A DNA stretch of 64,000 nt. It comes from Antechinus flavipes. Its lineage: Eukaryota. Both the position numbers and the translations under genes were made by a program. The DNA lies in contig NC_067398.1 in assembly GCF_016432865.1 (NCBI RefSeq), positions 177,134,001-177,198,000 on the forward strand. Reading direction: 5' to 3'. Numbering within the stretch: position 1 is the first letter of the stretch; each line of letters opens with the position of its first letter. Under the pieces are notes generated by a model. The model worked only from the letters and a program-made list of their open reading frames with translations, ran no database searches and was not told the DNA's origin. Below are positions 23,750-64,000 of this stretch, one piece after another.

Positions 23750-24456
23750 CCCTGAGAAGTCATGGAGGATGTGATCGCCCCTTTTTTGGTGTTTTCACCT
23801 CCCTTCCTCAGAAGTTAGGGAGGGCATGACCACCTGTGTTCTAAAACAAAAGAAAGCTGGAGATGTAGAGGGCCAGAACTCTGAAAAGGTGTACTTGAAT
23901 CAAGCACAGCAGGGTGCTTATAGTTAAAGCACCTACTCAGTGTTCTCTAAACATATACTTAAAAATGTGATGTAATGATGTAATCCAGGGGTCCTCAAAC
24001 TTTTTAAATAAGGGGCCAGTTTACTGTCCCTCAGACTGTTGGAGGGCCGGACTATAGTAAAAACAAAAACTTTGTTTTGTGGGCCTTTAAATAAAGAAAC
24101 TTCATAGCCCTGGGTGAGGGGGATAATCATCCTCAGCTGGTGCATCTGGCCTGCAGGTGCTAGTTTGAGGACCCCGATTGTAATCACTCTAGTTGGCATA
24201 TACTTAATGTGATAAGGTCATGTATTAGTTCCATAGTTGGCACATGCTCAGTGTGCTGTAGCGATGTAATTATACTGAGGTATTTAAGGGAGTCTCATTC
24301 ACAGACACAGAGAAGATTCGAGACTCCAGATTCCAGACTCCGGACTCCATTTTTGACCAGCCTCGTGGTGGCTGTCCTGCCTTCATCATTCCTCCATTAA
24401 GATCAAGAACTTGGGCTAATCCTGAGGTCCTCCAGAGAGCTAGTCTGGACATTACA
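23750..24456 (+). mobile_element. ERV solo LTR interrupted by hAT MITE
   Basis: Ends ...ggacattaCA (24456). TATA-like ggtatttaag near 24280 and a gactcc-repeat R region. Left boundary and TSD not resolved. Confidence 0.65.
23986..24177 (+). mobile_element. Non-autonomous hAT MITE (~190 bp, OposCharlie1/OC1-like)
   Basis: TIR CAGGGGTCCTCAAACT / AGTTTGAGGACCCC. 8-bp TSD atgtaatc (23978-23985) / ttgtaatc (24178-24185). Closely similar to the copy at 61042. Confidence 0.85.
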
Positions 24457-24985: not shown

Positions 24986-25586
24986 TGTAAGGGTCAAAGG
25001 ACAAAGGTCACCCTCAGTGCAAACAGGAAGTGAACAAGCAAGAAATGCTTGAAATTCCCTGAAGTAATTTCTGTGAGCAGAGACAGTCTTGTGGGTGGGA
25101 ACTCTAGCCATATTGAGATTTCTTTGTTAATAGGAGTGTCTCCTTCTATGATTGGCTGTGTGTGTGACCTCGTAGACCCTATTTAAGCTCTATGGAGGAG
25201 GAAGTCTCTCTCTTTCTCTCTTTTACCTGGTGTTCACCTGGGAGTCAACAAGAGGTCAGGGCAGAATGTGAATAAAAAACTTTAAGCTTGCATATGGCTA
25301 TTCTTGAGTGTGCTACTGGTTTTTAAACTACAGTTTATAAAACTGTAGCCAGAGACCTCTGAAAACCTCAGAAAGAGGTAAACTGGGTAAATTTGGTTTA
25401 TATAATGCAAAAGAGAGTGGCCAGAGGTTTCTCTGAGGGCCTGGGAATTAAGAGAGATTGGCAATGTAAAATGCTTGACCCTGGGCATTCACTTCATTTG
25501 CGAACACCCTAATACTACTCTGCATTTTATTTGCTTGTTCACTTCCTGTTTGCACTGAGCGTGACCTTTGTCCTTTGATCCTTACA
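24986..25586 (+). mobile_element. 601-bp TG...CA element with 56-bp terminal inverted repeats and LTR-like interior
   Basis: 24986-25041 matches the reverse complement of 25531-25586 at 54/56. Flanks ATCAGG (24980-24985) / ATCAAG (25587-25592). ATTGG 25151, TATTTAA 25180, AATAAA 25271. Confidence 0.8.
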
Positions 25587-30254: not shown

Positions 30255-30503
30255 NNNNNNNNNNNNNNNNNNNNNNNNNNNNNNNNNNNNNNNNNNNNNN
30301 NNNNNNNNNNNNNNNNNNNNNNNNNNNNNNNNNNNNNNNNNNNNNNNNNNNNNNNNNNNNNNNNNNNNNNNNNNNNNNNNNNNNNNNNNNNNNNNNNNNN
30401 NNNNNNNNNNNNNNNNNNNNNNNNNNNNNNNNNNNNNNNNNNNNNNNNNNNNNNNNNNNNNNNNNNNNNNNNNNNNNNNNNNNNNNNNNNNNNNNNNNNN
30501 NNN
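30255..30503. other. Assembly gap
   Basis: 249 N. Confidence 1.
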
Positions 30504-60790: not shown

Positions 60791-61041
60791 ATACTTATGT
60801 ATACATATATTTATTATATATGCTTATATAATACAAACTTATATATTCATGTGTGTCAGAACTTTTAAAAAGAGAATTGGCAAATGAAGGTGGCCTAGCT
60901 GTACCAAATCTAAAATTATATTATAAAGCAGCAGTTACCACAACCATTTGGTATTGGCTAAGAAACAGACTAGTTGATCAGTGGAATGGGTTAGGTTCAA
61001 AGGACAAAATAGCCAATAACTTTAATAATATAGTGTTTGAC

Positions 61042-61232
61042 CAGGGGTCCTCAAACTTTTTAAATAGGAGCCAGTTCACTGTCCCTCAGACTATTGGAGG
61101 GCTGGACTACAGTAACAACAAAAACTTTGTTTTGTGGGCCTTTAAATAAAGAAACTTCATAGCTCTAGGTGAGGAGGATAAACGTCCTCAGCTGCTGCAT
61201 CTGGCCCACGGGCCATAGTTTGAGGACCCCTG
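61042..61232 (+). mobile_element. Non-autonomous hAT MITE (OC1-like), second copy
   Basis: Perfect 16-bp TIRs CAGGGGTCCTCAAACT / AGTTTGAGGACCCCTG. Flanks tgtttgac (61034-61041) / tgtatgac (61231-61238, overlapping the terminal TG). Confidence 0.9.
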
Positions 61233-61699
61233 TATGACAAACCCAAAGACCCCAGATTTTGGGATAAGAACTCACTGTTTGACAAAAATTGCTGGGAAAA
61301 TTGGAAACTAGTATGGCAGAAACTAGGCATTGACCCACACTTAACACCGTATACCAAGATAAGGTCAAAATGGATTCATGACCTAGGCATAAAGAATGAG
61401 ATTATAAATACATTAGAAGAATATAGGATAGTTTACCTCTCAGACCTTGTGGAAGAGGAAGGCATTTATGACCAAAGAAGAACTAGAGATCATTACTGAT
61501 CACAAAATAGAAAATTTTGATTATATCAAATTGAAAAGTTTTTGTACAAACAAAACTAATGCAGACAAGATTAGAAGGGAAACAATAAACTGGGAAAACA
61601 TTTTTACAATCAAAGATTCTGATAAAGGCCTCATTTCCAAAATATATAGAGACTTGATTCTAATTTATAAGAAATCAAGACCTTCTCCAATTGATAAAT

Positions 61700-62227
61700 T
61701 GTTGGAATCTGTACAAACTGCTAACTAATTAGAGTTGATCTAATCTTACAAGAAGATGTTTTGGGCCAGAACCTGAAACAAGGTACTAAGAAGAACTAAT
61801 GAGTACAATGCTTGTGTTTACATCTTTACTCATTGGAGTTCACAAGTATGCCAGCTTCACAAAGTAAACTTTGTAACTTGGTGAATTCACACCTCCCTTA
61901 AAGCTCTTTGGGCCAGAGAGCACTATGGGAGAAAACCCATAATCCCTTTCTCTCGTATCCCACAATTCCTCCCTCTTGTATAAAAGAAACAGACAGAGGC
62001 TCTCAGTCAGATTTTTCACCGGAATGACATGAAGAGTGGAGCTGACTGGAGGCTGAAGAAAGCAGAGGCAGAGGCTGAAGGACAAAACCTTTGGATTTGG
62101 CGACATTCGGAGGGAGCTCTTGGAACCAAGCAGAGAGATAGACCTCTAAGCTAACCGGGCTATATTGGAGATAATAAAAGATCTGAATTTTTATCACCTG
62201 GATGCATTTGGGAAGAAGATCACCACA
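61700..62227 (+). mobile_element. 5' LTR of class II (betaretrovirus-like/ERVK) provirus, 528 bp
   Basis: Starts TGTTGG immediately after L1 ...gataaat. TATAAAA 61979-61985, AATAAA 62173-62178, ends CCACA followed by ttt and a PBS. Confidence 0.9.
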
Positions 62228-62230
62228 TTT

Positions 62231-62270
62231 TGGCGCCTGAATAGGGACTTGAACCCTGGACCCTCAGATT
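62231..62270 (+). promoter_or_regulatory. PBS 1: 40-nt complement of the tRNA-Lys(UUU) 3' half
   Basis: TGGCGCCTGAATAGGGACTTGAACCCTGGACCCTCAGATT, 38/40 to the recalled vertebrate tRNA-Lys3 positions 76 to 37. Confidence 0.9.
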
Positions 62271-62299
62271 TGAACCCCAACATTTGAACTCCCACATTT

Positions 62300-62318
62300 T
62301 GGTGCCCAACATGGGGCT
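62300..62318 (+). promoter_or_regulatory. PBS 2: tRNA-Lys(CUU) type
   Basis: TGGTGCCCAACATGGGGCT versus TGGCGCCCAACGTGGGGCT; both mismatches are CpG transitions. Confidence 0.85.
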
Positions 62319-62421
62319 AACAGACCCCTCAGTGGATTTCAGTGGAAAAGCTCCGATCCTGATTCAAGTGGAAAAGCCTTTGATCCTGATTCAGTGGAAA
62401 AGTCTTCTTGACCCAGAAATT

Positions 62422-62430
62422 CGGGTGAGT
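62422..62430 (+). promoter_or_regulatory. Probable proviral major splice donor
   Basis: CGG|GTGAGT between the PBS and the gag ATG. Confidence 0.6.
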
Positions 62431-62478
62431 GCAACAAAGAAATTTTGTTAGAAGAGTTAAAGTAGAATTTCAGCTAAG

Positions 62479-62948
62479 ATGGGACAGATATTTAGAAAAC
62501 AGCCTATTTCTGTTCAAGGAAAATGTTTAGAGAACATTGTCAAAGTTATGGAAAAGCCAAGGTTTAATTATAAATTTGGAGCAGATCACTGAACTTTTAG
62601 AAATTGTTAAATACATATGTCCTTGGTTCTCTACAGAAAAGGAATTAGATTTAGACAAATGGAAATTAATCGGAGAAAAACTGGGTGAATGCTGCAGATC
62701 TAATTCATCTTCTAATTCAAACTCAATGCAGTGGACATTAGAAAGAGAGGCTCTTTTTTATAATAGAAATGGACCTGACTCAATTTCCAAAGACATAATT
62801 AATACATATAATGTAATACAATTGGCTATAAGAAGTTATTTAAGTGATAGAATGAAGAAAAGGAAAGTTCAGGAGGAAGAAGTGCCAACTTTACTAGGTG
62901 AAAAGGAGCAAGAATCGGATAAGAATGGAGTTAAGTACAATTCTGAGT
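62479..62948 (+). pseudogene. gag: Betaretrovirus-like Gag matrix region, frameshifted and truncated
   Basis: MGQ start (62479). After a +1 frameshift it reads EQITELLEIVKYICPWFS..KELDLDKWKLIGEKL, the betaretroviral MA CPWF...W motif. Joins L1 at about 62949. Confidence 0.85.
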
Positions 62949-62961
62949 ATGGTCAAAGGAT

Positions 62962-63561
62962 ATGAACAGAAAATTCTCAGATGAAGAAATTGAAACTATT
63001 TCTAGCCATATAAAAAGATGCTACAAGTCATTATTAATCAGAGAAATGCAAATTAAGACAACATTGAGATACCACTACACACCTGTCAGATTGGCTAGAA
63101 TGACAGGGAAAGATAATGTGGAATGTTGGAGGAGATGTGGGAAAACAGGGACACTGATACATTGTTGGTGGAATTGTGAATACATCCAGCCATTCTGGAG
63201 AGCAATTTGGAACTATGCTCAAAAAGTTATCAAACTGTGCATACCCTTTGACCCTGCAGTGTTACTACTGGGCTTATATCCCAAAGAGATCTTAAAGAAG
63301 GGAAAAAGACCTGTATGTGCTAGAATGTTTGTGGCAGCCCTCTTTGTAGTCACCAGAAACTGGAAACTGAGTGGATGCCCATCAATTGGAGAATGGCTGA
63401 ATAAATTGTGGTGTATGAACGTTATGGAATATTATTGTTCTGTAAGAAATGACCAGCAGGATGATTTCAGAAATGCCTGGAGAGACTTACATGAACTGAT
63501 GCTGAGTGAAATGAGCAGGACCAGGAGATCATTTATATACTTCAACAACAATACTATATGA
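62962..63561 (+). pseudogene. L1 ORF2 C-terminal (Cys-rich) fragment, 199 open codons
   Basis: ORF track: CWRRCGKTGTLIHCWWNC, PFDPAVLLLGLYPKE, MFVAALFVV. Confidence 0.9.
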
Positions 63562-64000
63562 TGATCAATTCTGATGGACCTGGCCATCTTCAGCAATGAG
63601 ATGAAATCTCATTCTGTTCCAAATCAGTTCCAATGAAGCCGTAATGAACTGAACCAGCTACACCCAGCAAAAGAACCCTGGGAGATGACTAAGAACCATT
63701 ACATAGAATTCTCAATCCCTATATTTTTATCTGCCTGCATTTTTCATTTCCTTCACAGGCTAATTGTACACTATTTCAGCGTCTGATTTTTTTTTTTTTG
63801 TACAGCAACATAACTGTTTAGATATGTATACTTATTTTGTATTTAATTTATACTTTAACATATTTAACATGTATTGGTCAACCTGCCATCCAGGGGGTGG
63901 AGTGGGGAGGAATTGGAACAAAAGGTTTGGCAATTGTTAATGCTGTAAAATTACCCATGCATATAACTTGTAAATAAAAAGCTATAATAAAAAAAGGAAA

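Follow-up and report, generated by a model that had tools for sequence, protein, structure and literature searches.

The plus-strand primer-binding site (PBS) of a retrovirus is templated by the primer tRNA, the minus-strand PBS by the genome, and the two strands can segregate unrepaired. Variant primers leave their own sequence in the plus-strand PBS, and a T at PBS position 8 is ascribed to tRNA-Lys5 (PMC4549124). Plus-strand synthesis normally halts before m1A58, and a second stop lies at m5Um54 (PMC8599865, PMC11251516); PMC11251516 supports the stops at 58 and 54 only, and PMC3185550 holds nothing on stops of reverse transcriptase (RT). Without the 58 and 54 stops RT copies more of the tRNA, product extended beyond position 54 no longer pairs and is said not to integrate, and position 37 of tRNA-Lys3 is ms2t6A (PMC8599865). 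Betaretroviruses use Lys primers; the KRAB proteins described as binding both Lys PBSs are from mouse and human, with no mention of marsupials in that paper (PMC8931336). Tailless tRNA retrocopies go into sites that can pair with 2-18 nt at the end of the RNA (PMC5322556).

The locus described here carries two PBSs in tandem, behind a single long terminal repeat (LTR), in the 64-kb stretch of Antechinus flavipes DNA that was analysed as a whole (the window). The element begins with its 5' TG at 61700, where it interrupts an L1 ORF2 frame. Its LTR (TG...CA, 528 bp, 61700-62227; plus strand, as are all parts of the element and of the host L1 below unless noted) ends in CCACA at 62223-62227 and contains a TATA-like box at 61979, AATAAA at 62173, and a U5 region at about 62196-62227. 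The leader (62318-62478) carries three AGTGGAAAAG repeats and a splice-donor-like GGTGAG at 62424. It is followed by the 5' part of gag (matrix; 62479-62950), which has an early frameshift and is truncated at 62950. The AGTGGAAAAG copies stand at 26-nt spacing within 62341-62402. CpG is depleted across the whole element, with an observed/expected ratio of 0.18-0.25.

The gag fragment matches Pfam family Gag_p10 (E 4e-12). It is 62% identical (E 4e-38) to P0001, a protein named in its source as from Antechinus flavipes and the one match among 402 candidates, a set restricted to longer proteins; this relative by itself makes a dasyurid marsupial the likely host. P0001 in turn matches Gag chains of M-PMV (matrix, capsid) and HERV-K. 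Relative to P0001, about 22 additional in-frame Gag residues, of low complexity and rich in Ser and Asn, occur at about 62680-62760. The betaretroviral Gag matrix, together with a tRNA-Lys PBS after a TG...CA LTR, supports classing the element as a class II (betaretrovirus-like) endogenous retrovirus (ERV). The two LTRs and 4-6 bp target-site duplication of that class were not found, since there is one LTR, and the bases at the expected duplication agree at 2 of 6 positions. No second LTR copy, pol, or env occurs within the 64-kb window. The element, called a provirus when the sequence was first read, is a fragment consisting of LTR, leader, and about 470 nt of gag.

Because the window contains no second LTR copy, the 3' boundary of the LTR is set by the succession CA-TTT-PBS by itself. 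CA dinucleotides at 62282 and 62296 provide alternative LTR ends. The one at 62282 would form a perfect 6-nt terminal inverted repeat with the LTR start, compared to 3 nt each for ends at 62227 and 62296; 6-nt matches are frequent here, with about 22 expected by chance.

In the upstream PBS, CCACA at 62223-62227 is followed by TTT and then by 40 nt, 62231-62270, that match the complement of tRNA-Lys(UUU) positions 76-37 at 38 of 40 positions in the assembly sequence. The region was proposed as such a copy in the sequence-only reading, with the same coordinates, and the extension of the match beyond 18 nt is borne out against human tRNA-Lys3. On the minus strand, the region reads as a copy of positions 37-76 of a mature tRNA-Lys(UUU), with its CCA end, a B box at tRNA position 53, T54, T55, C56 and A58 in register, and four of five T-stem pairs intact; on the plus strand, it is an upstream PBS extended to 40 nt. 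The combination of a CCA end and an in-register B box is unique to 62231-62270 among the 126,130 40-mers on both strands of the window. A by-eye comparison of positions 37-66 with human tRNA-Lys3 (Table 4 of PMC3832253) gives 29 of 30 identities, including an exact run of 28 nt. The mismatch, at tRNA position 65, is likely a later mutation, because it breaks T-stem pair 49:65. PBS positions 1-10 were judged against a published Lys1,2 PBS and the 5-nt Lys3 core in PMC8931336; the single difference is a T at PBS position 8, which the tRNA-Lys5 variant (PMC4549124) and CpG decay explain equally well. ARAGORN finds no tRNA gene in the window, and an Rfam search of 61600-63000 returned two matches at chance level, neither a tRNA. 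The copy shows what a primer read-through product would have: a mature tRNA 3' end with CCA, in PBS register, that extends past position 58.

The match to the tRNA stops at position 37, and the base that follows does not continue into the anticodon. Because base 62270 also serves as the first base of an 8-nt repeat of 62249-62256, the copy ends at either A38 or A37. Of the 40 nt proposed earlier, the last base, given then as A37, is therefore ambiguous. Papers from 1999 reportedly describe an RT stop in the anticodon loop, and such a stop may lie at 37. An end at 38 or 37 may be compared with the ms2t6A37 listed in PMC8599865. The same source assigns the second stop to m5Um54, contrary to the earlier claim that A37 is the next block after m1A58, and a stop at a modified A37 would leave A38 as the last base copied.

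The second PBS, of tRNA-Lys1,2 type, occupies 62300-62317 and runs directly into leader and gag. The sequence-only reading was right in assigning it to the Lys(CUU) type and in noting CCACA-TTT before it. Compared by eye to the PBS of the marsupial endogenous betaretrovirus MEBrv1 (PMC11334065 supplement), it is identical at 16 of 18 positions, both differences being CpG transitions, and its core fits the Lys1,2 type given in PMC8931336. The two PBSs of the locus are today 11/18 identical to each other. The duplicated LTR end and TTT spacer at 62292-62299 provide eight identical bases upstream of both. With the first 3 nt of the PBS they make an exact 11-nt direct repeat, 62223-62233 and 62292-62302, that brackets 69 extra nt. 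A repeat of at least 11 nt arose by chance in 1 of 300 mononucleotide shuffles.

A filler of 21 nt (62271-62291) separates the tRNA copy from the second LTR end; in it the T-loop complement appears again, followed by pieces resembling the LTR end and the second PBS. Exact 8-nt matches connect the filler region to 62249-62256 and to 62305-62312, and one 8-nt piece of the filler agrees with the second PBS as it reads today, CpG decay included. Four repeats of at least 8 nt occur in 62195-62345, compared to a shuffle mean of 0.12, and none of 300 shuffles had as many. Two LTR-end-like units had been reported here; they are present, but are really parts of a 14-nt tandem pair (62269-62282 and 62283-62296, 12 of 14 positions identical), each unit joining T-loop complement to LTR end. 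The filler can be read as that tandem pair or as the product of successive short jumps, along more than one path. A stretch of 7 nt that the tRNA copy shares with the leader (62261/62326) was discarded as chance level, the shuffle mean being 0.45 repeats of at least 7 nt.

Two 6-nt pieces flanking the filler, 62265-62270 and 62277-62282, with 6 nt between them, are inverted complements, in order, of the first 12 nt of the LTR (61706-61711 and 61700-61705, respectively). They may reflect a fold-back or chance. A fold-back of the 3' end onto the LTR start was noticed post hoc, with about 22 such matches expected by chance, and is not counted as support for any reading.

A duplex of -30.0 kcal/mol is predicted between U5 (62196-62227) and a stretch of the leader at about 62393-62427, and 2 of 500 dinucleotide shuffles gave one as strong; for three control targets, 498, 301, and 39 of 500 shuffles were as strong. 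The predicted pairing suggests that LTR and leader belong to one element. Because the partner of U5 lies beyond the second PBS, that Lys1,2 site, continuous with the leader, is likely the native PBS. In the predicted fold of the native leader, neither PBS stands out as open (mean unpaired 0.24 and 0.34). Recombination between two LTR families was considered and set aside, as local motifs explain the second "LTR end" and U5 pairs with the downstream leader.

The element sits in a host frame, which we take to be L1 from its ORF2 motifs; Pfam returned no significant match for this frame. The left piece spans 60870-61699 (start approximate), its frame ending in ...RPSPIDK plus one base. The right junction and the resumed L1, as far as its A-rich tail, span 62949-63980. 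The frame interrupted at 61699 is taken up again at 62950-62951, reading WSKDMN... from 62950, and 2 nt of microhomology (62949-62950) are shared with the end of gag. No normal target-site duplication is present. Similar L1 pieces occur elsewhere in the window, whose surroundings have the character of an AT-rich, repeat-rich animal scaffold. Within the L1, 61042-61232 is 90% identical to 23986-24175; these are two copies of a 191-bp element with 16-bp terminal inverted repeats, presumably a hAT-like MITE. Elsewhere, inverted arms of 56 nt at 24986-25041 and 25531-25586, 96% complementary and 489 nt apart, possibly mark a young DNA-transposon-like element.

A later deletion would have had to stop only a few bases from where the element first went in, an unlikely coincidence. 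Normal joining at the U3 end, with repair-mediated joining of the broken other end, would explain the right junction, which makes the locus a candidate one-ended integration. One-ended integrations of this kind are documented.

Taken together, these features are best read as the scar of a single faulty round of reverse transcription, which would have left both the 40-nt tRNA-Lys(UUU) copy and the repeated LTR end; we put the probability of this reading at roughly 0.55. Read-through of the primer as the origin of the copy, whether or not a family later inherited it, is probable. In the proposed sequence of events, a co-packaged, non-cognate Lys(UUU) tRNA would prime on the Lys1,2 site, and the poor match of the PBSs (11/18 today) would stall the second transfer. 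Plus-strand synthesis would pass m1A58 and U54 and come to a halt in the anticodon loop, either at the modified A37 or just short of it. The resulting 40-nt tail would be unable to pair with the minus-strand PBS, and its 3' end would slip by way of short matches and resume on the end of U5, duplicating the LTR end and keeping the genomic PBS. The defective DNA would then be joined normally at its U3 end only, and host repair would link the broken gag end to the target. The element would thus be a dead, locus-specific relic and not a working two-primer design.

Several features argue for read-through. The copy has the CCA end, the PBS orientation, and the exact PBS register after CA-TTT, and the foreign tRNA is the other Lys isoacceptor. 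The filler was built from local templates. The L1 picks up again no more than 2 nt from the insertion point and lacks a normal duplication, a second anomaly that one faulty replication would explain. Read-through with aberrant second-strand transfer had been suggested from the first reading of the sequence. It stands as the best reading, with added support from the 11-nt repeats, the filler built of local motifs, the pairing of U5 with the leader, and the one-ended junction, but the suggestion had overlooked a rival in L1 activity or break repair. Other considerations weigh against it. Two documented stops had to be passed, and PMC8599865 states that such products cannot integrate. PBSs identical at 11 of 18 positions would make for poor priming. 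Truncation may also have come later, in an event of its own, and a single LTR leaves the LTR boundary unfixed. An L1-type insertion yields the same layout, namely a repeat of 8-11 nt, a T-rich nick-like site, a 5'-truncated RNA copy, and filler.

In that rival account, a 3' piece of tRNA-Lys(UUU) entered a resident element through target-primed reverse transcription by L1 or through break repair templated on RNA, the tRNA's 3' end pairing with the resident Lys PBS. We consider this unlikely, although several details fit. The direct repeat on either side, 8-11 nt long, has the look of a target-site duplication, is within the 7-20 bp usual for L1 retrocopies, and is expected under faulty reverse transcription as well. 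The TTTT/GG at the junction resembles an L1 nick site under a relaxed consensus. Such an insertion would also suit the filler, which lies at the far junction, and the filler piece that reproduces the second PBS in its decayed form would fit an event that followed the decay. On the minus strand CCA is followed by three A residues, which may be a short tail or the spacer that belongs to the element. The 2-18 nt of target complementarity described for tRNA retrocopies in PMC5322556 also agrees, but that class is 3'-truncated, whereas the copy at 62231-62270 is not, keeping its CCA and lacking the 5' half. Landing exactly in register at the LTR-PBS junction would require hitting a small target, and the one-ended right junction would be left as a coincidence.

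It is quite unlikely that the accident happened once in a founder and that a family then copied the result, whether as a PBS lengthened to 40 nt with a spare one behind it or with U5 having taken in the tRNA piece and the LTR ending at 62282 or 62296. The perfect inverted repeat offered by the CA at 62282 favors the form with the tRNA piece in U5, but 6-nt matches are common here. A 40-nt site would, for its part, pair fully with read-through DNA. Against a stable family stands the tendency of two-PBS vectors to delete the stretch between their PBSs. Each of the four MEBrv lineages inspected, out of five with representatives, has one PBS, of Lys1,2 type in MEBrv1, 2, and 3 and of decayed Lys3 type in MEBrv4 (PMC11334065 supplement), though these are other lineages than the one studied here. 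The main text of PMC11334065 contains no occurrence of PBS, primer, or tRNA. In scERV5476, an intact MEBrv1 representative in the supplement, a stretch at about 477-494, just after the Lys1,2 PBS, resembles by eye the second half of a Lys3-type PBS plus T-loop complement; it may be no more than the usual leader motif of type D, or else a second site that has worn down. Searches for related DNA found no locus in viral contigs and none in metagenome contigs, collections in which such DNA is not expected and which are silent on family size.

A chimera of assembly or library is highly improbable: the evidence is from the assembly only, the stretch sits in nested repeats, and the window has four N gaps, but the nearest gap (30255-30503) is more than 31 kb away, the junction overlaps of 1-2 nt and 11 nt would be far below what an assembler needs, and transitions typical of aged DNA occur in the tRNA copy, both PBSs, and the tandem units of an element whose CpG is depleted throughout. 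In a sequencing-run index, 20 of the 24 rows listed contain part of 61650-63000, with a best share of 0.58 and at least half of the region in four, figures uninformative on the junction or on orthology.

If a single faulty round of reverse transcription did produce this locus, it is a natural counter-example to the view that DNA copied past tRNA position 54 does not integrate, and it records non-cognate priming and an anticodon-loop RT stop in a germ line of the past. Tallied genome-wide, the lengths of PBS extensions in ERVs would then map, from existing assemblies, in vivo RT stops on primer tRNAs and the frequency of isoacceptor swaps. A single dead fragment has no likely function, and nothing found points to a role in priming or silencing; the earlier suggestions of a family-wide design and of silencing through tRNA fragments or KRAB-ZFPs gained no support here. 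The layout would be of much greater importance if it were family-wide. A bolder possibility, distinctly unlikely, is a dasyurid lineage of betaretroviruses that acquired the 3' half of tRNA-Lys(UUU) through primer read-through and went on replicating with it. Its primer site would then be 40 nt long and cope with read-through beyond m1A58, next to a spare Lys1,2 site, or else its U5 would include a tRNA half that its LTRs spread. Such a lineage would be a natural retroelement of two isoacceptors, and its LTRs a means of scattering antisense tRNA halves.

The individual steps proposed for this locus are known from laboratory systems; what is unusual is a seemingly inherited germ-line copy. Laboratory work by Voronin and Pathak; Li, Kang and Morrow; Colicelli and Goff; Pulsinelli and Temin; and Mikkelsen and Pedersen reportedly yielded PBSs in tandem, additional tRNA sequence, and second-strand transfer mediated by U5. 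Read-through of the tRNA primer when m1A58 is missing was reportedly seen by Renda 2001, Wu 1999, and Auxilien 1999. Engineered two-PBS vectors, cloned circles, and deletion mutants are products of the laboratory or of cell culture, whereas the arrangement here appears to be an inherited locus. In the literature searched, where older virology is thinly covered and absence from print is not established, no natural ERV with tandem PBSs or a 40-nt primer copy was found.

The marsupial ERVs MEBrv1-5 (PMC11334065) likewise have a Lys-type PBS, a short leader with a splice donor, and a betaretroviral matrix. By eye, the Gag of MEBrv3 is the most similar among those compared (MEBrv1-4), but LTR and Gag here clearly differ from those of MEBrv1 and MEBrv3, and none of MEBrv1-4 is of the same family. 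The tailless tRNA retropseudogenes made by L1 (PMC5322556) share a tRNA piece without a clear A tail, a short flanking repeat, and a target complementary to the RNA end. Those are 3'-truncated and 5'-complete, whereas the copy here is the opposite and stands in PBS register. In the tRNA-Lys3/Lys5 PBS heteroduplex of HIV and SIV (PMC4549124), as proposed here, the plus strand is the record of the primer and the minus strand holds the genomic PBS, and the T at position 8 of the present copy corresponds to the Lys5 variant; the heteroduplex involves one alternating 18-nt site, in contrast to two tandem sites of different isoacceptors. A further parallel is the read-through of HIV-1 and MLV in the absence of m1A58 (and m5Um54), in which plus-strand DNA likewise takes in more than 18 nt of tRNA-Lys3; lentiviral PBSs in nature reach as far as the U54 stop (PMC8599865). 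Compared to these, the copy at 62231-62270 reaches position 38 or 37, is found in a genome assembly, and has the genomic PBS kept behind it.
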